Part shown: one piece after another, positions 7,254-40,587 of the stretch
Numbering within the stretch: position 1 is the stretch's first letter
Layout: each line of letters starts with the position of its first letter
Assembly: GCA_965215155.1 (NCBI GenBank)
Contig: CBDCCY010000002.1
Span: forward strand, 559,698-623,697
Source of the DNA: Vicinamibacterales bacterium
GTDB lineage: Bacteria; Acidobacteriota; Vicinamibacteria; Vicinamibacterales; UBA8438
DNA: 64,000 nucleotides
Direction of reading: 5' to 3'
Made by a program: the position numbers and the translations under genes
Notes under the pieces: model-generated
What the model was told of the DNA's origin: nothing
The model's input: the letters and a program-made list of their open reading frames with translations, nothing else
Databases searched by the model: none

Positions 7254-9010
7254 CGTTCACCTCCGAGCTCCGCGAGACGCCGCTCGAGCAACTCCTGCAG
7301 CGCGTCGGCCATGTCCTGGCTCTCCGGCGGCAACTGGGCGCGCATCTGATCCGCCTGCGCGAGGAACTGGCGCAACTGCTCCTCCCCCATCTGCCCCATC
7401 ATGGCCCGCAACTGCTCCACCTGCTGCCGCTCCTCGTCGCTCAGGCCCGCCAGCAGCGGATCCGGCTCGGCGTCGTCGCCGCCTTCCCGGTAGTAGACGG
7501 CGACCGCGCGCGACTCCGGCGTGAAGTACTTCTGCGCGACGCGCATGACGTCGGCCGCGGTGACGGCGTCGTAGAGCGCCGGATCCGAGTTGATGTGTTC
7601 CCAGCCTCGATTGCCCTCCCGTATCAGCAACTGCATCATCAACTGGAAGTTGCCCTGGAGGCCGCGGAAGTTGCCCGCCGCGTTCTGATTCTTGACCTTC
7701 TGGAGCTCCCGGTCCCCGACGGGCTCGGTCTTCAGCCGCTCGAGCTCCGCGTAGATCGCCTGCTCGACCTCTTCGGGCGTCCGCCCCTGCCGCGCCGTGC
7801 CGCGCAGCTCGAACATGCCCTCGAAGCTGAATCCCGCCTGGCCGCCCGACGCCCGGGTGGCGACCTCCTGCTCCTCGACGAGCGCCTTGTAGAGCCGCCC
7901 CGTGCGGCCGTTCAGGAGTTGCCCGAGGACGACCAGGGCCGGCTCGTCGACGTGGCCGTCGCGCACCGAGTGGTAGCGGATCGCCACCTGCAGGTTGGTG
8001 TCGGCATGGGCCACCATGCGCGTCTCGGCGAGCTGCGGCATCTCCCGCGTCCGGGGTTCCTGCGGCGGGCGCGCGCCGCGCTCGAGCCGGCCCAGGTAGC
8101 GCTCGGCGAGCGCGATCGCCTGGTCCGGGTCGAAGTCGCCGACGAGCGCCGCCGCGAGGTTGTTGGGCGCGTAGTAGACGTCGAAGAACGCCAGGGCCTC
8201 GTCGCGCGTGAGGCCTTCGAGGTCGCTCGGCCAGCCGATGACCGGCGTGGCGTAGGGCGAAGACTGCCAGAAGAGCGAGTTGAACTGTTCCTCGAACTTC
8301 CCTATCGGCGTGCTGTCGATCCGCAGCCGCCGCTCCTCGTGCACGACCGACCGCTCGGCGTAGAACTCGCGGAAGACCGGGTTGGCGAGCCGGTCGCTCT
8401 CCATCCAGAACCAGAGCTCGAGCTTGTTGGCCGGGACGTTGACGAAGTAGATCGTGAAGTCGTAGCTGGTCCCGGCGTTCATGCCCGACGCGCCCTGGCC
8501 GGTGTAGATGCGGCTGAAGTCCTCCTTGATCAGCAGATCGCTCTGCCGGGCCAGCAGCTCCTCGAACTCCGCCAGCAGCTCCTGATGCCGCGGCGTGCGC
8601 ACGGCGGGGTCGTCCGCGTCCTCGATCTGCCCCAGCTCGTAGGCCCGCTCCAGCTCCATCTGGGCGCTCTGGATCGCCGCCCGCAACTCGTCGAGGCGGG
8701 CGATGATCTGCAGGTCCTCCTCGATGTTCCGGGTGCCTATCGTCCGCGTCCCCTTGAACATCATGTGCTCGAAGAGGTGCGCCACGCCGGTGATGCCCGG
8801 CCGCTCGTAGACCGATCCGACCTTCGCGATCCAGCCCGCCGCGACGTTGGGGTCGCCGGGGCGCGGCACGAGCAGCAGGGTCAGGCCGTTGTCGAGCGTG
8901 TGCTCGATGACCTGCACGTCCTGCGCCGCGGCCGGGCCGGCGACGAGGACGGCGGCAAGCGTGAGCGCCGAGGGCAGGCGCCGCGACATCCGTGAGATCC
9001 TCTGCGACAT
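7250..9010 (-). CDS. M16-family zinc peptidase (pitrilysin-like), catalytic type
   Basis: Frame of ORF 7250..9061. Start at ATG 9010 (MSQRISRMSRRLPSALTLAAVLVAGPAAAQ). HxxEH zinc motif within GVAHLFEHMMFKG. Confidence 0.85.
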   Translation of the reverse strand: MSQRISRMSRRLPSALTLAAVLVAGPAAAQDVQVIEHTLDNGLTLLLVPRPGDPNVAAGWIAKVGSVYERPGITGVAHLFEHMMFKGTRTIGTRNIEEDLQIIARLDELRAAIQSAQMELERAYELGQIEDADDPAVRTPRHQELLAEFEELLARQSDLLIKEDFSRIYTGQGASGMNAGTSYDFTIYFVNVPANKLELWFWMESDRLANPVFREFYAERSVVHEERRLRIDSTPIGKFEEQFNSLFWQSSPYATPVIGWPSDLEGLTRDEALAFFDVYYAPNNLAAALVGDFDPDQAIALAERYLGRLERGARPPQEPRTREMPQLAETRMVAHADTNLQVAIRYHSVRDGHVDEPALVVLGQLLNGRTGRLYKALVEEQEVATRASGGQAGFSFEGMFELRGTARQGRTPEEVEQAIYAELERLKTEPVGDRELQKVKNQNAAGNFRGLQGNFQLMMQLLIREGNRGWEHINSDPALYDAVTAADVMRVAQKYFTPESRAVAVYYREGGDDAEPDPLLAGLSDEERQQVEQLRAMMGQMGEEQLRQFLAQADQMRAQLPPESQDMADALQELLERRLAELGGER

Positions 9011-11706
9011 GGTGCAAGACTCCACCGCGTGAGTGTGGCACAGTCGCCGAGCCGACGCCAAGCTGCGGACCCTTGCCCGGCGCCGCCCGGTGCGGTATGT
9101 TGGTAGTTCTCTCCGCTCGCGGTCAGCGACCCGCGCCGAGGTAGCTCAGTTGGTAGAGCACATGACTGAAAATCATGGTGTCGCCAGTTCGATTCTGGCC
9201 CTCGGCACCACCCTTTCCCTTTCGAGCGGCCCTTGGTGAACCGAGGGCTGCTGCTGCCCGCCGGGACCTTGAACGTCCGGCCAACCACGGCCTCCGCCAC
9301 CCGGCCGCCCACGGCGTCGGCCCGCGACTGGGTTCCGCGGCGTTGCGATTCGCCCGGTCTGGGCATTCGGTAGCCGACGCCCCGCTCATTGCGGACGTAG
9401 GCCGGGTTGGCCGCGTCGTCCCCCAGCTTGCGGCGCAGGCTCTTCACGATGGCCCGTACCACCCTCGGGTCGCCCGAGCCCCGATTGCGCCTCCCCCACG
9501 CCCGGCCCAGCAGCGATTCGTACGTCACGACCCGTCCGGCACTGGTCGAGAGCACGCGGAGCACCTCGAACTCGGTGACCGTCAAGGTCACGGGGCGGTC
9601 GGCCACGGTCACGCGGCGTTCCTCGTAGTGAATCGCCAGGTCCCCCAGCAGGAATGGCTCCGGCTCGACCCGACGGCGCAGCGCCGAGCGCACTCGCGCC
9701 GTCAGCTCCGACGGAGAGAACGGCTTGACGATGTAGTCGGCAGCTCCCGCATCCAGCGCCCGGACGATGGTCTCGTCCCTACCGTAGGCCGAGATGAAGA
9801 TGACCGGCAGATCCTCGAGCTCGCGCACGCCTTCCATCAACTTGATGCCGTCGGTGTCCGGCAGCACCAGGTCCATCAGGACGAGCCGGGGCTCGTACGT
9901 CCTGACGAGGCCGGGCAGCGCCTCCGGGTCGCCGGTCACGACTGGAGCATAGTCCGCCTCGACCAGGGCGTCCCGAACGTACCCCAACGAGTGCGGGTCG
10001 TCGTCGACCACGAGGATGCGCGTACGCTCCTTCCCCTTGCGGGCGCGGCGCGAGCGGCCCGGAACGGAGCCGGCGGAGTCGGCGGGTGCCTCGGCCACCG
10101 GCAGGGTGAATGTGAACCGCGTGCCGCGCCCCGCCCCGCCGCTCTCCGCCCAGATGCGGCCTCCGTGCGCCTCTACCAGCCCCTTGCATATGGCCAGGCC
10201 CAGGCCGGAGCGACCGAGCCGACCCTCGCCCCTTCCGGCAGCCGCGCTGTCGTACTTGCGGAACAGGTGCGGCAGCCGGTCCGGCGGCACGCCGCGGCCC
10301 CGGTCGGCAACCGAGACCGCCACATGCAGGCCGTCACGCACGGCGGCGATCCGGATCGGAGACGACTCGGGAGAATGCCGCGATGCGTTCGAGAAGAGGT
10401 TGCTGAGGACCTGGACGATGCGTCCCGAGTCGGCCATCACCCGCGGCAGGTCCTCCGGCAGGTCAATGTCCAGAACGTGCTCGCCGCCGCCGCCGAGGAA
10501 GGTGTTCCTGGCCTGGTCCACCACGCGGGCCACCTCCGTCGGCTCGGGCGAGACCGACAGCGTGCCCGTCTCGATGCGCCCCTGGTCCAGCAGATCGCCG
10601 ATCAGCCCGAGCATCTGGTCGGCCTGCTCGTCGATGACCCGGAAGAACTGTCGCGTCTCCGCCAGATCCGGGGCCCGCGACGCGCCCAACACGGCGACTG
10701 CCGAGCCCTTGATGGAGCTCAGCCGCGTTCGCAGCTCGTGGCTCACCATCCCCAGGAACTCGGCCCGCTGGCGCTCCAGTTCCTGCAGCGGCGCCAGGTC
10801 CTGCATGGTGACCACCATCGACTCGACCGTGCCATCGGCCGAGCGGATCGGCGTCGCGTTGACCAGCGTCGTCACGCTCCGGCCGTCAGGGACGGTCAGC
10901 GTGATCTCCTCGGCGCGCACCGTCTCGGGGCTGCTCAGTTGCCCCGCCATCGGGAACTCCGTCAGGGTGACCTCGCGCCCGTCGCCGCGGCGGCAGGTAA
11001 TCACGTCGAGCAGCTCCTCCACCGCGCCCCCCGGCATACGCAGGCGCTCGACGATCCGCCGGGCCTCCCGGTTGAACGATACGGGCCTGCCGCTCCCGCC
11101 GTCGAAGACGACGACGCCTACCGGCGAGGTTTCGACCAGAGCCTCCAGGTCGGCCCTGGCCCGCCGCTCGTCCCGGTGCGTGCGGGCGTTGGCGATGGCC
11201 GTCGCGGCCTGCGACGCGAACAGGACCAGAACCTCCTCGTCGGCGCTCGTGAACTCCGGTCCGCCCTCCTTCTCGCCGAGAAAGAAATTGCCGCCGTGCA
11301 CGTCGCGGTGGCGCATAGGCGTGCACTGCATCGTCTTCGACACAATCAGCTCGGTCGAGAAGCCGAGTTCCCGGACATAGGCCAGCAGGTCGGGCACTCT
11401 CAACGGCTCCCGCAGGTCCCGGAAGTGCGCGAACAGGCGCAGCCCGTCGGGCCACTCGACCATTGCCGCGTGCTGGCGGGGCGTCAGGCCGGCGCTGACG
11501 AGGTCTTGCGGCTCTCCGGCGTCGTCGACTGTCGCGATCAAGCCGTAGCGGGCGCCGGTCAGCGCGCGGGCGCTGTCGACGATCTCCCGCAGGACGGTCT
11601 CGAGGTCGAGGCTGGCGCTGACGCGCAGGACGGCTGCGCACAGGTTCGAGATGCGGTCCTCGAGCGTCTCGATCCGTCGGCGCAGTTCATCGGGACTCTC
11701 CTTCAC
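8881..11706 (-). CDS. soluble hybrid sensor histidine kinase fused to a complete OmpR-type response regulator (GAF-PAS-HisKA-HATPase-REC-wHTH), with an anomalous 160-codon tail
   Basis: Frame of ORF 8881..12219. GTG 11706 is preceded by AAGGAGGGG. H-box MVSHELRTRLSS, G-box SGLGLAICKGLVEAHGG, REC ILVVDDD...LVLMDLVLPDTDG, wHTH ending GVGYRM at about 9364. The frame then stays open through antisense tRNA-Phe to 8881. Confidence 0.75.
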   Translation of the reverse strand: MKESPDELRRRIETLEDRISNLCAAVLRVSASLDLETVLREIVDSARALTGARYGLIATVDDAGEPQDLVSAGLTPRQHAAMVEWPDGLRLFAHFRDLREPLRVPDLLAYVRELGFSTELIVSKTMQCTPMRHRDVHGGNFFLGEKEGGPEFTSADEEVLVLFASQAATAIANARTHRDERRARADLEALVETSPVGVVVFDGGSGRPVSFNREARRIVERLRMPGGAVEELLDVITCRRGDGREVTLTEFPMAGQLSSPETVRAEEITLTVPDGRSVTTLVNATPIRSADGTVESMVVTMQDLAPLQELERQRAEFLGMVSHELRTRLSSIKGSAVAVLGASRAPDLAETRQFFRVIDEQADQMLGLIGDLLDQGRIETGTLSVSPEPTEVARVVDQARNTFLGGGGEHVLDIDLPEDLPRVMADSGRIVQVLSNLFSNASRHSPESSPIRIAAVRDGLHVAVSVADRGRGVPPDRLPHLFRKYDSAAAGRGEGRLGRSGLGLAICKGLVEAHGGRIWAESGGAGRGTRFTFTLPVAEAPADSAGSVPGRSRRARKGKERTRILVVDDDPHSLGYVRDALVEADYAPVVTGDPEALPGLVRTYEPRLVLMDLVLPDTDGIKLMEGVRELEDLPVIFISAYGRDETIVRALDAGAADYIVKPFSPSELTARVRSALRRRVEPEPFLLGDLAIHYEERRVTVADRPVTLTVTEFEVLRVLSTSAGRVVTYESLLGRAWGRRNRGSGDPRVVRAIVKSLRRKLGDDAANPAYVRNERGVGYRMPRPGESQRRGTQSRADAVGGRVAEAVVGRTFKVPAGSSSPRFTKGRSKGKGWCRGPESNWRHHDFQSCALPTELPRRGSLTASGENYQHTAPGGAGQGSAAWRRLGDCATLTRWSLAPCRRGSHGCRGACPRRSRLPPSSSPARPRRRTCRSSSTRSTTA
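9135..9210 (+). tRNA. tRNA-Phe (anticodon GAA), CCA encoded
   Basis: Hand-folded 76-nt cloverleaf. Acceptor GCCGAGG/CCTCGGC, D arm GCTC-AGTTGGTA-GAGC, anticodon arm CATGA-CTGAAAA-TCATG, T arm GCCAG-TTCGATT-CTGGC, discriminator A, then CCA. Confidence 0.93.
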
Positions 11707-35422: not shown

Positions 35423-35577
35423 GCCAGTTGCTCGAACAACGCGACGTACGCGTCGGCGGCTTTCTCGGGTGAGAAGTCGGCGGCTCGCGCCCGCAGCGCT
35501 TTCTCCGGCGGGTGCTCGCCGCGCAGGGTCTTGACCAACTGTATTCGGTTAGCGGGTGATTTCCCAATAGACACGGG
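35395..35577 (-). pseudogene. C-terminal remnant of a glycosyltransferase gene
   Basis: Tail of ORF 35395..36087. Only ...NRIQLVKTLRGEHPPEKALRARAADFSPEKAADAYVALFEQLA looks protein-like. Upstream sequence switches to IS66-related DNA at about 35580. Confidence 0.4.
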
Positions 35578-35840
35578 CTGAGAGTGGACTTGGAGTGCGG
35601 AGGTTTCAGCGCGTCGACGCGGTGGCTGGAACCGACAGTGTGTTCGCGCGGCTTGCCTCCCCCGTCGCGATGCCACGGACACCGAACGCCAAGCCGGCGC
35701 GCGGGAGCATCGGCGCCGATTTCTCCGTGAAGTCCGGTGGCGACCGCGGGCTGCCGCGGGCGGTGCGGTCGTCCGCCTCCTGCGGCGGGGCGCCACGGGG
35801 ACCGGTCGCCCGTCGAGGTCGTATGTCGGACGTTGCCGGC

Positions 35841-36353
35841 CTACGGGAGCGGCGGCGGAAGGCCGAGGAGCTCGGGGACAACGGGCTCGACCGCGCGCAA
35901 CATCGCGGCGATCAGCGGAGGCAGGTCGAGGCCGCGTTGGCGCGCGGTGCGCACGACGCTGGCCAGGACCTGCTGGGTGTCGGCGCCGTGGCGGGTGCGG
36001 TTGCCGCCGCACACCTTGCGGATGACCACGGCGGGCCGGAGGGCCTGTTCGGCGCGCCAGTTGGTGGCGTCGAGCGAAGGGTCCCACAAGAATAGGAACA
36101 CAGCCGGGAATTCGGTGGCCAGGTGCGCCGCGAAACGCTCGGCGTCGTCCAGCGGCGGCGGGGCGTCGACCAGCCGCCCGAGCCGGGCCGTGAGTCGGCC
36201 GCGGGCCGTGGCCATCCCGTGCTCGCTCAGCGCTCCCGCGTTGCAGCGGTCCCGCAGGTCGAGACCGGCCCGCAGGACCGCCGCCACGTCGCCCGCCCAG
36301 GGACTGTTCGGATAGTCCTCCCGGAGCTGCTTGCAGCGTTGTAACAGGTGATT
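35841..36353 (-). pseudogene. IS66-family transposase (TnpC), 3' fragment downstream of the RIT insertion
   Basis: ORF 35841..36287 extended upstream reads NHLLQRCKQLREDYPN...FLFLWDPSLDATNWRAEQALRPAVVIRKVCGGNRTRHGADTQQVL. It continues the HQTCLNH ending of the fragment at 39740..40392. Confidence 0.75.
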
Positions 36354-36462
36354 CTTATTCCGATATCGGAATAAGAACCACTATGCCGATGTCAGGATTA
36401 TTCCGATGTTGGTGCAGACGCCCCTGTTGTTGGCGGCATCTGCACCAAACTGATCGGCATAA

Positions 36463-37452
36463 TCACAGCCCTTCGAGAAAGGCCAGGAGCGCGTCGGATG
36501 GTTGATAGCGGCCCCCGCGGACTTCGGCTGGGGTGGTCCTTGCGAGCGCCCGTTCCTTCAGGGCGAGGTCGGCATGGATGTAGATGTCGGTGGTGCGGAC
36601 GTGTTCGTGTCCGAGCCACAGGGCGATGACGGTGTTGTCGACCCCGGCGTGCAGCAACCGCATGGCTGCGGTGTGACGCAGCGTGTGCGGGGTGACGGTC
36701 TTCTCGCGGAGCGATGGGCAGGCGTGGGCCGCAGCAGCCACGTGCGTCGTGACGCGTTGCGCGAGGGCGTCTCGGCTGAGCGGTTTGCCTGTCCGCGTAG
36801 GGAAGACTGGTGCCTCTGGTGAGCTGGCGCATTCGGCCAGCCAGGCACGCAGGGCGGCGGCCACCGGCTTGGTGAGCGGAGTGACCCGGTGCTTGCGCCC
36901 TTTTCCAAGGCAGTGGACGTGCGCACCTCGCGCCAAGTGCAGGTCCGTGCAGCGCAGGCCGGTGAGTTCGGCGGCGCGCAATCCGGTCTGGATCGCGAGC
37001 GCGAGGAGAGTGTGGTCGCGGCGCCCGGTCCACGTGGTGCGGTCGGGGGCGGCGAGCAGGGCGTCGACTTCGAGGTCGGACAGGAAGGTCACGAGCCCAC
37101 GTGGACCGCGCGTGGGGGGCATCGCGAGTACGCGGGCAATGACGGCTGCCTGCTCGGGATGCTCCAGTGCGGCATAGCGGAACAGGGCATGAATGGCCGA
37201 CAACCGCGCGTTGCGGGTGCGCGCGGTGTTCGCGCGGTCGTGCTCGAGGTGGGCCAGGAATCGTCCGATGAGGGGTGCGTCGAGATCGCCGAGTTCCAGG
37301 TCCGAGGGGGCCTTGGCGAGGTGGACCGCGGCAAAGCGGACGAGCATCCGCCACGCGTCGCGGTAGGCAGCGACCGTGTGCGGGCTGGCGTGGCGCTGGT
37401 GCACGAGCCGCTCGGTGAAGAACGCCTGGAGCGTGGGAGCAAGGGCGCTCAT
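36463..37452 (-). CDS. tyrosine recombinase, third gene of the trio (RitC position)
   Basis: Frame of ORF 36463..37737. ATG 37452 overlaps the upstream stop (ATGA). Catalytic region HTLRHTAAMRLL and GHEHVRTTDIYIH. Confidence 0.8.
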   Translation of the reverse strand: MSALAPTLQAFFTERLVHQRHASPHTVAAYRDAWRMLVRFAAVHLAKAPSDLELGDLDAPLIGRFLAHLEHDRANTARTRNARLSAIHALFRYAALEHPEQAAVIARVLAMPPTRGPRGLVTFLSDLEVDALLAAPDRTTWTGRRDHTLLALAIQTGLRAAELTGLRCTDLHLARGAHVHCLGKGRKHRVTPLTKPVAAALRAWLAECASSPEAPVFPTRTGKPLSRDALAQRVTTHVAAAAHACPSLREKTVTPHTLRHTAAMRLLHAGVDNTVIALWLGHEHVRTTDIYIHADLALKERALARTTPAEVRGGRYQPSDALLAFLEGL

Positions 37453-38375
37453 GCTGAGGCCCCCAGATGGCGTTCGAGGCGGTCTGAGGCCAACTGCATC
37501 AATGCCGGTGCCGCCGACAGGTACCAGTATGTGTACTTGGGGTCGGCGTGCCCGAGATAGGTGGCCAGGAGCGCGATTCGCGCCGCCGGATTCTGGCCCT
37601 GTCGGTAGGCGTCGAGCAGCGTGCACGTCGCGAACCGATGTCGGATGTCGTGCAGCCGTGGCCGACAGGCGGCTGCGTGCGGCCGGAGGCCCGCGCGCTG
37701 GACCAGGGTGCGGAACGTCTGCTGTACATTGCGGCACAGCAGCCTCGTGCCCGCGGTAGAAACGAACAGCGCGGCGGTGTCCCGGGCCGCCAGCCGGTCC
37801 GCGCGGAGCAGATACTGCTGGACCGCGGCGCTGGCTGTGGGGTGCAGCGGAAGTGCACGGGACTTGTCGAATTTGCCGTGGCGGACGGTGATCAGCCCCT
37901 GCTCGGCGTCGAAATCGTGCCGATCGAGCGCGATGGCTTCACCGACGCGCATCCCGGTCACGACCAGCAGACCGATCAGGGTCCGATACGTTGCGGCCCG
38001 ATGCCCGGTGCGCAGCCCCGATGTGGCGACCAGCAGGGCCGCGATGTCTTCGTCGGTGTAGGGGTACGGCGTGGCGCGCTGGGCGCGCGCCTGCAACAGG
38101 TCGGCGGGCGGTATCTCGGTTGCCGGGTCGATCGTGCGCACGAAGGTCGCGAAGCCGCGGACGACGGTGAGTCGGCTGGCCCACCACGCCCTCGGGTCCT
38201 TCCCGGCGGGGAGTGTCGCCCAGGCGAGGGCGGTCTCGGTGCGCAGGCGCGTCTCCCCGCGGTCTTCGAGATAGGTCAGGAATTGCGCGAGGAGCTTCTC
38301 CGCGCGCGCCAAGCGGTAGCCCAGCGCCCGGCGCATCGTCAGATAGTCGGCCAGGGCTTGACGCAGGAAGGTCAT
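37449..38375 (-). CDS. tyrosine recombinase, second gene of the trio (RitB position)
   Basis: Frame of ORF 37449..38393. ATG 38375 overlaps the upstream stop (ATGA). HDIRHRFATCTL and LGHADPKYTYWYL. Confidence 0.8.
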   Translation of the reverse strand: MTFLRQALADYLTMRRALGYRLARAEKLLAQFLTYLEDRGETRLRTETALAWATLPAGKDPRAWWASRLTVVRGFATFVRTIDPATEIPPADLLQARAQRATPYPYTDEDIAALLVATSGLRTGHRAATYRTLIGLLVVTGMRVGEAIALDRHDFDAEQGLITVRHGKFDKSRALPLHPTASAAVQQYLLRADRLAARDTAALFVSTAGTRLLCRNVQQTFRTLVQRAGLRPHAAACRPRLHDIRHRFATCTLLDAYRQGQNPAARIALLATYLGHADPKYTYWYLSAAPALMQLASDRLERHLGASA

Positions 38376-39592
38376 GCTGCACCTCCAGGCCACGCGCGTG
38401 CGATCGTGCGCAGGGCGTCATGGTCGACCTTCGCGTAGATCGCCGTGGTCTGCAGGCGGGCGTGACGCAGGAAGTGCTGGATCTCGGACAGGGGGGCGCC
38501 CGCTCGGAGCAGTTGCGTTGCCGCGAAATGACGCAACCGATGTGCGTGGACGACGCCGAGGCCGGCTCGCTGCGCGGCGGCGGCCACAATCTGCGTGACC
38601 CCGGTCGGGCTCAACGGGCCCAGAGGCGCGACCAGGCGGACGAAGACGGTGCGCCCCTGCGCCCGGGTCGGCCGTTGGCGGAGATATGCGGCCACCGCGT
38701 TGCCCACATCGGTCGGGAGAGGCATGCGCTCGGCCCGATTCCCCTTGCCGTGTACGACGACCTCGCCGGCGCGCCAGTGCACGTCGTCGAGACGCAGGGT
38801 CGCCACTTCGGCGGCCCGCAGGCCGAGGCGGGCCAGCGTGGTGATGACCGCAAAGTCGCGGCGCCCTCCCAGCGTCCGGGGGTCGCACGCGGCGAGCAGT
38901 CGCCGGACGTGGTCGGGCTCGAGGCGCGGCGGAAGCGCCACCAGTCGTCGGCCGGCTACCGACGGGACGGCCGTCGCCAGCGAACGCTGGACCACCCCGG
39001 TGACATGCAGGAAGACCAGCAGCGAGCGCAGTGCGGTCGACGTCAGTTGCGCGGCCCGGCGGGATTGCTCGGCACAGCGCGCCACCATGAACGCAGTCAC
39101 GTCGGCCTCACCGAGTTGCTCGAGGTCCAGCCCGAGGCCGTCGGCCGAGATGCAGCCGCGCAGAAAGGGGCGGACCGCATCGACGTAGCCCTGGGCGGTG
39201 GCTTCGCCCAGACCCCGTTCCACGGTGAGGTAGTGCCGGTAGAGCACCAGGGTCTTGTCCACGGGCCCTGTCGGGATGGGCGTCGTCGCAGGCGGGATCG
39301 CGCCACGAGCCCGGAGGTACGTCAGCAACGGGCGCAGCGCCTTGCCCGTCAGATGCCTCTTGTAGCCGGCCTTCTGCCGTGCTTGCAGAAACTGCTGCGT
39401 TCGCTCTGGCAGGTCGCCGATGTCGAGGCCTCTTGCCTGCAGCCACCGGCTGACGGCCGACGCCAGAGACAACTGCGTCCGCAGCGAGCGCGGTGTGTAG
39501 CCTTGCTGCGCAAGCTCCGTCGCGAAGCCCGCCGCGAACGGCTTGAGCGAACCAGCGATGGCGACGACGGGAACGCGTGACGGATCACTCAT
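38372..39592 (-). CDS. tyrosine recombinase, first gene of the trio (RitA position)
   Basis: ORF 38372..39592. HRLRHFAATQLL and LRHARLQTTAIYAKV. SAM-like N-terminal domain. Confidence 0.8.
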   Translation of the reverse strand: MSDPSRVPVVAIAGSLKPFAAGFATELAQQGYTPRSLRTQLSLASAVSRWLQARGLDIGDLPERTQQFLQARQKAGYKRHLTGKALRPLLTYLRARGAIPPATTPIPTGPVDKTLVLYRHYLTVERGLGEATAQGYVDAVRPFLRGCISADGLGLDLEQLGEADVTAFMVARCAEQSRRAAQLTSTALRSLLVFLHVTGVVQRSLATAVPSVAGRRLVALPPRLEPDHVRRLLAACDPRTLGGRRDFAVITTLARLGLRAAEVATLRLDDVHWRAGEVVVHGKGNRAERMPLPTDVGNAVAAYLRQRPTRAQGRTVFVRLVAPLGPLSPTGVTQIVAAAAQRAGLGVVHAHRLRHFAATQLLRAGAPLSEIQHFLRHARLQTTAIYAKVDHDALRTIARAWPGGAA

Positions 39593-39739
39593 GAGAGCCT
39601 CCTCTCTCGTGGGTCGTGAGAGAAGAGTCTCCGTCCGTCAGCGCGCGGTGATTATCCGGATCGTCTCGTCGAAGACGCCCTGCACGACCGGGACATCAGG
39701 GCGGACATCGGAATAATCCCGACATCGGCATAGTGGTTC

Positions 39740-40392
39740 AGACACGTTTGGTGCAGGCCGTCGTAGCAGCGATACGGCGCCCATCCGTCGCGCACGAGCA
39801 CGCCGACGTAGTCGGTCCCCAGCACCGTGGCGGCATCGGCGAACCCGCGGCCGGGGCAGATGGCGTAGACCGTCGTCTCCGGCGTGACGAACGTCCACAG
39901 CCAATGGCGCTCGCCGCCGACGCGCCAGCCCGTCTCGTCCGGCGTGACCACGGGCGCGTTGCGGACCTGCTCGCACAGTTCCGTGTAGGCCGGCGCGGCG
40001 GCACGGGCCGCCCGGTGCAGCACGTGGGCCAGCCCGCCCGGCGTCACCTGCAGCCCGAACGTGGTCCGCAGCAGGTGCGCGACCTTCGCCAGCGGCACCC
40101 CCATCTCCGTGTGCAGCTCGACCAACAGCGCCACGACCGCGGGACCGAGCTGCACGCCCGCCGCCCCCAGCGCGTCCGAGGTCTGCAGCTCGTGGCGGCC
40201 CTGCACCCGCCGCTGACACCGCGTGCAGTGACCAACCTCGATGGCAAAGCGCCGCACCACCGGGCGCACCACCGGCAGGTCTTCCTGATACTGCGACGCC
40301 TCGCGGGTCCTTTCGACCGCGCCGCCGCAGTCCGGACATTCCCTCGGAATCGGCGCCGCGTGGGTCTCGTCGACCTGCGCCGGACGCCGGCG
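39740..40392 (-). pseudogene. IS66-family transposase (TnpC), middle fragment, lacking about the first 100 codons
   Basis: Part of ORF 39652..40587. PRECPDCGGAV...GHCTRCQRRV...VVTPDETGWRVGGERHWLWTFVTPETTVYAICPGRG...VLVRDGWAPYRCYDGLHQTCLNH. Fused upstream in-frame to radical SAM sequence. Confidence 0.75.
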
Positions 40393-40587
40393 GCAGCCAT
40401 GGCAGCGCAACTGGCAGCCCGAGATGACCGAGATGAAGAGGAACGGCGGGAAGTGCTCGCCCCGCTTGAGCCGCCGCTTGTAGAGCTGCACGGAGCGGAC
40501 GCCCTTGACGCCCATGTTCCAGACCAGCTTGCGCAGGGCGCGCGGGTCGGGCTCCGTCAGCATCCGCCGGGCGAGTCCGAGCACCAC
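40393..40587 (-). pseudogene. radical SAM enzyme, N-terminal about 65 codons with the CxxxCxxC motif (rest at 17833..18797)
   Basis: Start of ORF 39652..40587: MVLGLARRMLTEPDPRALRKLVWNMGVKGVRSVQLYKRRLKRGEHFPPFLFISVISGCQLRCHGC. Similarity then switches to IS66 TnpC. The start is 4 nt after the upstream gene stop. Confidence 0.7.

Follow-up and report, generated by a model that had tools for sequence, protein, structure and literature searches.

Which kind of element has interrupted the IS66-family transposase gene studied here, where does the inserted DNA begin and end, and how did it come to lie behind one particular codon? The gene belongs to a stretch of 64,000 nt from a Vicinamibacterales bacterium (assembly GCA_965215155.1, contig CBDCCY010000002.1, positions 559,698-623,697, forward strand), hereafter the window; all coordinates are positions in it, and the element occupies approximately 36,348-39,739. 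An earlier note on this DNA had described a recombinase-in-trio (RIT) element, three chained tyrosine recombinase genes between inverted repeats, nested in an IS66 transposase gene. Taken together, our results are best explained by an intact RIT that was inserted site-specifically and that moves by conservative tyrosine recombination at a loxP-like 13-7-13 site, an explanation that we consider probable as a whole. For its mechanistic part taken alone, conservative recombination via the 13-7-13 site, which is argued from sequence comparison, we see the chances as about evenly balanced. The element is not new in kind: a RIT in an IS66-family transposase gene is already known from Cupriavidus metallidurans CH34 (PMC2864759), and the present copy is a canonical RIT in a new host group. 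What the comparison adds is an exact boundary, evidence for site choice at His codons of mobile-element genes, orientation switching and, by inference, a model of the recombination site.

An intact trio of tyrosine recombinases

Three genes follow one another on the minus strand, ritA (38372-39592), ritB (37449-38375) and ritC (36463-37452), encoding tyrosine recombinases of 406, 308 and 329 amino acids, respectively (Pfam Phage_integrase, E=4.6e-30, 1.5e-23 and 7.9e-32). The ritA stop and the ritB start share the ATGA at 38372-38375, as do the ritB stop and the ritC start at 37449-37452 (tcat on the plus strand in both cases); the lengths and overlaps given in the earlier note can be read directly from the sequence, as can a GGAGG ribosome-binding site upstream of the ritA ATG. 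The order ritA-ritB-ritC on one strand is identical in plasmid pHG1 (locus L040), whose trios are named in the literature and served as our reference RIT, and in the 17-19 other trios of the comparison set (54 proteins from Acidobacteriota, Alpha- and Betaproteobacteria and Actinomycetota).

The earlier note had proposed a comparison of the trio with the three RIT subfamilies, and each protein indeed falls into the subfamily that its position predicts. The sorting was done by BLASTP against the pHG1 RIT and between trios. RitA, which is about 39% identical to pHG1 RitA, scores 235 and 192 bits against the pHG1 RitA proteins and at most 70 against RitB or RitC; RitB scores 209 and 210 bits against the pHG1 RitB proteins and at most 42 against the others; RitC scores 345 bits against pHG1 RitC and at most 70 against the others. 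Over the 17-19 trios, the minimum within positions A, B and C is 191, 175 and 331 bits, as against a maximum across positions of 93, 72 and 93. NCBIfam holds no RIT-specific models; all three proteins fall far below its XerC and XerD cut-offs, and only a marginal match to GmtY was obtained. Exact-sequence look-ups of the RitA and RitC of the window, and of the proteins P0121 and P0243, returned no record.

The R-K-H-R-H-Y set is complete in each of the three proteins: R259, K283, H351, R354, H377 and Y386 in RitA, invariant in 31 homologues; GMR143, K168, H242-x-x-R245, H276 and Y285 in RitB; and R159, K184, H256-x-x-R259, H282 and Y291 in RitC. Two sequential core-binding domains are the hallmark of RitA (Smyshlyaev 2021, PMC8138268). 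Pfam finds only the second of these (SAM-like domain at 117-195), and an AlphaFold2 model of RitA contains two four-helix bundles, at residues 17-95 and 110-197, that correspond to the hallmark domains. Within residues 11-210 of this model, the block means over 10 residues of the predicted local distance difference test (pLDDT) range from 69 to 92 and mostly exceed 80; the catalytic domain is modelled poorly (mean pLDDT 67.8). RitC has been described with an extra conserved C-terminal helix (Smyshlyaev 2021, PMC8138268). In the window its tail comprises 38 residues after the catalytic Tyr291 and ends in RYQPSDALLAFLEGL, with the terminal motif RYxPxDxLLxFLxGL in common with pHG1 RitC (RYRPADELLGFLNGL). 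The element encodes no DDE, HUH or serine enzyme, only these three tyrosine recombinases with complete active sites.

The architecture matches as well. In published RITs the inverted repeats measure 28-34 bp and a palindrome lies next to ritC (PMC3414803, PMC10214605), the repeat being 28-29 bp in the elements of Van Houdt 2012 (PMC3414803), and short gene overlaps have been described in them (PMC3414803, PMC2864759). With its length of about 3.38 kb, its gene order, the 4-bp overlaps, the terminal inverted repeats and the palindrome on the ritC side, the element fits this description throughout, as the earlier note had proposed, and neither of the outcomes that the note had named as refuting its view was obtained. 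The subfamily sorting, the catalytic residues, the two core-binding domains of RitA and the ATGA overlaps identify the segment 36355-39732, together with one copy of a 7-mer, as an intact member of the RIT family.

The host gene and the exact boundary

Both halves of the interrupted gene lie on the minus strand. The upstream part (39740-40412) ends in ...GLHQTCL(NH) and is 94.7% identical over 681 bp to an intact IS66 copy (L042), our reference for the empty site in blastn comparisons. The downstream part (35549-36347) continues with the tnpC codons LLQRCKQL... up to the stop at 35841-35843, followed by about 290 bp of IS66 3' sequence, and is 89% identical to L042 over 806 bp, up to window position 35549. 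Rejoining the flanks gives the coding sequence of a transposase of the IS66 family (Pfam DDE_Tnp_IS66, E=1e-31; zf-IS66 is also present) that is 96% identical to the intact 489-aa relative P0001. Close intact relatives all read GLHQTCLNHLLQRCKQL, and the rejoined flanks neither gain nor lose a residue; the joined reading ...GLHQTCLNH/LLQRCKQL... reported earlier (here and below a slash in a protein or target motif marks the insertion point) is exactly that of the intact proteins.

The nesting itself needs one qualification. The transposase gene is split and can be rejoined, as had been said, but the host IS66 is itself 5'-truncated: homology to L042 begins at about 40412, near codon 95 of 489. 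With the transposase domain present and about 95 codons and everything upstream gone, the host is a remnant and not an intact insertion sequence.

The insertion point, which the earlier note had placed to within a few bases, can be fixed on L042. The intact DNA there reads CTG AAT CAC CTG and contains the 7-mer GAATCAC once; it is precisely in this 7-mer that the two flanks of the window overlap (L042 3957-3963, blastn). The element is inserted immediately behind the His codon of C-L-N-H/L-L-Q-R, a conserved tnpC motif, and the inserted DNA is 36355-39732, 3378 bp, plus one 7-mer. On the gene strand the layout is IS66-up–GAACCAC–[TATGCC...ritA ritB ritC...GGCATA]–GTGGTTC–TTATTCCGAT/ATCGGAATAA–GAATCAC–IS66-down. 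The target 7-mer occurs three times: in direct orientation at both junctions, and in the opposite orientation where the palindrome meets the inverted repeat. At the downstream junction (36348-36354, GTGATTC; gene strand GAATCAC) it is of the target type (AAT) and runs into the downstream half of tnpC. At the upstream junction (39733-39739, GTGGTTC; gene strand GAACCAC) it is of the element type (AAC), runs into the upstream half at the codons Asn-His and is the exact reverse complement of the internal copy (GAACCAC, 36375-36381).

Composite ends and a palindrome inside the insertion

The 35-bp inverted repeats reported earlier (36375-36409 and 39705-39739) are present with their single mismatch, the A at 36394, which is a private mutation because seven sibling copies lack the mismatch. 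Their complementarity extends to 95 nt at 74% (36375-36469 and 39645-39739). They do bound the conserved interior; as limits of the whole element they fall short, the inserted DNA also holding the 20-bp palindrome and the inverted 7-mer. The 19-nt tip of the repeat occurs just twice in the 64 kb (none expected from 100 shuffles), and the subterminal motif TATKCCGATRTC, noticed before, is found six times within one mismatch, always at the element ends, as against 0.15 expected occurrences.

In an alignment of 13 ends from seven copies, one layout of about 95 bp recurs: the 7-mer, S1 (TATGCCGATRTC), S2 (TTATGCCGATRTC) 17 bp further inward, a hairpin and an inverted S3. In the window, the composite end on the ritC side (36382-36469) holds S1 at 36382-36393, S2 at 36398-36410, the hairpin at 36411-36446 and the inverted S3 at 36452-36462, which directly adjoins the ritC stop codon. 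The end on the ritA side (39645-39732), with S1 at 39721-39732, S2 at 39704-39716 and a degenerate S3 at 39652-39662, precedes ritA, whose promoter or operator it probably contains. The hairpin between S2 and S3 is GC-rich and imperfect at both ends and is kept better in form than in sequence (GCAGACGCC...GGCGTCTGC). Covariation in it is weak, with compensatory changes in four of nine pairs and a covariation term of -0.48 kcal/mol; it may be a terminator, an operator or a site for an accessory protein.

The perfect palindrome TTATTCCGATATCGGAATAA (36355-36374) is part of the inserted DNA. Because its 20 bp lie between two 7-mers related by reverse complementation, bar one mismatch, it is the core of a 34-bp palindrome with a single mismatch (36348-36381, GTGATTCTTATTCCGAT/ATCGGAATAAGAACCAC, the slash marking the centre). 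The 20-bp core consists of two inverted copies of the 13-bp end motif that overlap at GATATC, and this self-complementary 6-bp centre is GATATC, GCGCGC or GCTAGC depending on the lineage. The palindrome is missing from the intact IS66 L042 and present in RIT relatives of several lineages. Together with the flanking 13-bp motifs, the internal inverted 7-mer forms a complete 13-7-13 site at 36362-36393.

Related copies and the choice of target

No further RIT copy exists in the window. Relatives of its RitA with 69-80% identity are encoded at about 20 loci in Vicinamibacterales genomes, and P0241, a cluster mate of the RitA in the window for which the exact-sequence look-up did succeed, is encoded at seven further places in two European Nucleotide Archive assemblies. 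The interiors of these seven siblings are 99.8-99.9% identical to window positions 36376-39735. Most of them occupy the same codon of a second IS66 variant (QSCVNH/LLRRCK, 7-mer CAACCAC), whose flanks are only 84-87% identical to those of the window. Because the interiors are so much more similar than the flanks, the comparison indicates that the RIT entered homologous sites of diverged hosts independently and site-specifically, which rules out simple co-inheritance. Near-identical copies in different contexts point to mobility, and the lineage has been mobile recently and picks the IS66 site specifically.

The extent of the mobile unit is given by genome OZ242205.1, in which L004 and L007 lie between unrelated flanks and have precisely 3386 bp in common, at 99.8% identity. 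The mobile unit includes the palindrome, since this lies within the shared block. The target of L004 is not IS66, and its sequence, GCAG-GTGTGTG-AGG, resembles the IS66 target GCAG-GTGATTG-AGG. In the junction 7-mers of the siblings the outer four nucleotides track the flank (GAAC, CAAC, TCTG, GCGA) and CAC/TATGCC is constant; for this reason the crossover probably lies in or beside the CAY.

Other lineages, with RitA identities of 63-70%, sit at analogous His codons of other genes. That of P0203 interrupts another IS66 subfamily (RQRCLAH/LIRK, 7-mer GGCNCAT); that of P0160, with at least 10 copies in one genome, an IS256-family transposase (QRCQVH/KLRN, 7-mer AGTACAC); and that of L010-L013 a group II intron protein (GRKH/KARSG, 6-mer CAAGCA). 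Across lineages the internal 7-mer co-varies with the local target (CAATCAC, CAAGCA, AGTACA, GGCNCAT, ATCGGC).

One broader reading is that RITs are specialised parasites of mobile elements, in which each lineage carries two loxP-like sites fused to each other, with a 6-7-bp crossover that has co-evolved with an NNNNCAY His-codon site (C-x-x-H/L-L-R in IS66, C-x-x-H/K-x-R-N in IS256, R-K-H/K in the group II intron). We put this forward tentatively, as somewhat less likely than its opposite. If it is true, a RIT would be able to insert both ways round, to flip where it lies, to leave by precise excision and to be carried along by a multi-copy host. The target specificity of RITs is listed as "not tested" (PMC10214605), and neither the His-codon logic nor the doubled-site architecture is described in the accessible literature, a body to which Ricker 2013 does not belong.

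Orientation and the side of the palindrome

Two pairs of copies, L006 and L007 as well as L010 and L011, have interiors that are 100% identical and inverted relative to their flanks, and the IS256-targeting lineage shows both orientation states in one genome. The side of the palindrome is constant. We surveyed 28 copies in which the palindrome directly adjoins the inverted repeat: in 28/28 it is bordered on the outside by a 7-mer, behind which target sequence begins, this 7-mer ends in CAY in 27 (the exception being L003, TGCCTTC), and in all 26 copies with an identified target gene the flank is the downstream half of that gene.

Some other copies depart from this arrangement. In L002, L070 and L078 the palindrome is lacking and the upstream half of the target lies on both sides; in L067 and L068 the palindrome and the downstream half lie on both sides. 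These two groups look like the reciprocal products of an inversion between two RIT copies, although the short metagenome contigs among them could possibly be assembly chimeras of both orientation states. We rejected L067 and L068 as circle junctions, as both of their ends continue into IS66 downstream sequence, which leaves recombinants or assembly chimeras.

A recombination-site model and its rivals

We propose that the element moves by conservative recombination between tyrosine recombinase sites and not by DDE-type transposition. Each end carries inward-pointing 13-bp motifs (TTATKCCGATRTC), the putative binding sites, and the internal site at 36362-36393 consists of one such motif, an asymmetric 7-bp spacer and an inverted second motif. 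In an excised circle the joined ends would form a perfect 54-bp palindrome with two inverted 13-7-13 sites and the crossover GTGGTTC, the predicted junction being GACATCGGCATA-GTGGTTC-TTATTCCGATATCGGAATAA-GAACCAC-TATGCCGATGTC. To serve as partner for either site, a target would then need no more than a similar sequence of 6-7 bp that ends in CAY. Of the three 7-mers of the integrated form, one would come from the target and two from the circle, and the unused site would remain inside as the palindrome plus the inverted 7-mer. The use of either site, or subsequent inversion by recombination of the internal site with the far junction, would yield ritABC in both orientations and at the same time leave the palindrome on the fixed downstream side of the target. 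Conservative recombination would also account for the absence of any duplication made by a polymerase. With a non-identical overlap and strand exchange at both of its edges, replication would leave one junction of the element type and the other of the target type; the window has such a pair (GAACCAC/GAATCAC), and L004 shows its mirror image. Precise excision would restore the IS66 reading frame and the site CTGAAYCACCTG.

Several points weigh against this proposal. Neither a circular junction nor an empty donor site was observed in our data, and Nielsen 2017, who saw exonuclease-protected RIT DNA, likewise found no circle junctions (PMC5737581); the transposition of a RIT has never been reproduced experimentally (PMC10214605). 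L028 has no matching outer 7-mers, and for the copies without an adjacent palindrome (L002, L041, L058, L070, L078) the model must invoke recombination between copies. For the heteroduplex reading of the junctions there are two cases, the window and L004; a later mutation or a polymorphism of IS66 would explain the A/G difference just as well, and L055 has GAACCAC at its downstream junction. Finally, the model offers no reason for three recombinases.

Three other explanations have to be weighed against site-specific conservative recombination. The one with the most in its favour, which we nevertheless regard as unlikely, is a folded single strand or a hairpin-ended linear intermediate, in which the ends of about 95 nt and the 34-bp palindrome would pair into the substrate, in the manner of CTX-phage and XerCD, of integron attC sites or of palindrome cutting resembling that of telomere resolvases. 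Hairpin intermediates were proposed by Nielsen 2017 on protected RIT DNA without detectable circle junctions (PMC5737581), and the perfect palindrome with its self-complementary centre, like the subterminal hairpin conserved more in form than in sequence, would suit them. However, the breakpoints with flanking DNA lie at the 7-mers and not at the centre of the palindrome, which ends exactly at the 7-mers and never reaches into the flank; the hairpin covariation is weak (-0.48 kcal/mol), and a duplex 13-7-13 site accounts for the same features with no extra assumptions.

We give less credit to the view that no target choice took place and that a single ancient insertion spread and diversified in the form of an IS66::RIT composite moved in trans by intact IS66 copies, the shared codon being inherited. 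Many related copies do occupy one IS66 codon, copies in one genome can have near-identical flanks (L008 and L023; L011-L013 with their host element), and Van Houdt 2012 (PMC3414803) raised the same caveat for the Tn6049::RIT composites. Inheritance is contradicted by the 99.8-99.9% identical interior in two IS66 variants with 84-87% flanks, by L004 and L007, which have only the 3386-bp element in common, and by the lineages at 63-70% RitA identity, which use His codons in a variety of genes and in each case have an internal 7-mer that matches. Least credible of all, by a little, is transposition by staggered cuts, with the direct 7-mers as a target-site duplication and the 35-bp inverted repeats as the true termini. 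A 7-bp direct repeat with one mismatch does flank the insertion and terminal inverted repeats do exist, but only tyrosine recombinases are encoded, and such enzymes synthesise no DNA. Repair duplication does not explain why the insertion contains a third, inverted 7-mer and a 20-bp palindrome, both varying in step with the target, and the junction 7-mers of one copy can differ at one or two positions (the window; L004).

Although RITs are widespread, they form one of the few classes of prokaryotic transposon for which nobody has reproduced movement. The present copy and its relatives provide a testable substrate, the donor 13-7-13 site doubled as a 54-bp palindrome, with predicted products in both orientations. 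They also define a natural target, about 20 bp around CTGAAYCAC/CTG in IS66 tnpC; donor, target and products together suffice for the design of in vivo or in vitro recombination assays. For annotation, two effects of RITs matter: the division of transposase and intron genes at fixed codons, and inversions between copies.

Comparison with known systems

The archetype ritA1B1C1 of C. metallidurans CH34 is a RIT with ATGA overlaps that interrupts an IS66-family transposase gene (Janssen 2010, PMC2864759), and RITs have been published in a Tn6049-like transposase gene and in radC (PMC3414803). Like ritA1B1C1 and the RITs of pHG1 (PHG134-136, PHG129/130), the element in the window has co-oriented A-B-C genes with ATGA overlaps, a length close to their approximately 3.4-3.5 kb, terminal inverted repeats of about 28-35 bp and a palindrome beside one end; both CH34 (PMC2864759) and pHG1 carry RITs inserted within an IS66-family transposase gene. 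The pHG1 RIT shares the end anatomy, with the motif TTATGCCG at 17-bp spacing and an inverted third copy, in the S1, S2, S3 pattern. The RITs of CH34 and pHG1 differ in being hosted by Proteobacteria and not by Vicinamibacterales (Acidobacteriota), and pHG1 in its IS66 codon (PISNNAV/ENQ versus CLNH/LLQR here). These are differences of lineage, not of kind.

At 5735-15350 of L040, the pHG1 recombinase "maze" contains an IS66 transposase gene that is split at PISNNAV/ENQIRP by a structure with two inverted ritA-ritB ends as its limits. The palindrome GCGGTTCATGCCGCT/AGCGGCATGAACCGC lies at one junction, and the 7-mer GCGGTTC resembles the GTGGTTC of the window. The inner pHG1 RIT (PHG134-136), which has different end motifs in the rearranged "maze", was left out of the comparison of ends.

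Tn554 and the SE/GInt elements resemble the RIT in having several tyrosine recombinases together and in inserting site-specifically without a duplication made by repair. They can carry a 6-7-bp junction sequence from the donor to the new site, and their junctions may differ (PMC10214605), as in the window and L004. In contrast to the RIT, they have neither terminal inverted repeats nor a palindrome of the RIT type. They also encode a non-recombinase helper (TnpC, Srap/GinD, Tfp), whereas the RIT encodes no protein other than its three catalytically complete recombinases.

The sites of Cre/loxP and FLP/FRT consist of two inverted binding motifs of about 13 bp around an asymmetric crossover region of 7-8 bp, and the asymmetry of the spacer sets directionality. 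The layout GATATCGGAATAA-GAACCAC-TATGCCGATGTC at 36362-36393 is similar, but the RIT target has no recognisable binding arms, two sites are fused back to back, each end has extra direct copies of the motif (S2, S3) and three recombinases are present instead of one. Integrases of the Tn916/CTnDOT type also tolerate non-identical crossover or coupling sequences and leave differing junctions, a likeness to the RIT; these are large conjugative elements with one integrase, Xis and arm-type sites, and the RIT is minimal at 3.4 kb.

Additional observations

A promoter-like site (GGGACA-16 nt-AATAAT, 39690-39717, plus strand) lies in the end on the ritA side and is directed outward into the upstream half of IS66, to which it is antisense. 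It was the sole match in the region in a scan for promoters and terminators and has no clear meaning.

Upstream of about 40412 the IS66 frame runs into about 62 unrelated codons (40413-40587, minus strand; MVLGLARRML...ISGCQLRC) that resemble the start of a radical-SAM protein, the sole match being weak (HpnH, E=0.13). Since the remainder of this radical-SAM-like gene is absent downstream of IS66, a deletion or rearrangement has taken place at about 40412.

A scan of Joint Genome Institute metagenomes with the 26-nt internal site gave no matches. A second scan, with the 19-nt inverted-repeat tip, gave nine matches, all of them discarded as chance, the rest of the repeat being missing. Many RitA relatives lie on contigs of 3.2-3.7 kb, about one RIT length, which suggests that multi-copy RITs break short-read assemblies at their ends.

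Sibling and related copies can carry further DNA. A module of about 2.5 kb separates the palindrome from the inverted repeat, its position being inside the internal 7-mer, in L052 (3296-5860) and L053 (9218-11776), and is also found in L054, L056, L057, L001 and L017, in either orientation. Its products are a tyrosine recombinase of 289 aa and a Y2 transposase of the IS91 type (402 aa), and its junction 7-mers differ (GTGCAGA, CAACCAT, GCGACAC). Possible origins of the module are a second element with the RIT site as its target, or the capture of DNA through this site. L006 has a 2.78-kb insertion within the rit genes (about 8040-10820), bounded by a 10-bp repeat and presumably another insertion sequence.

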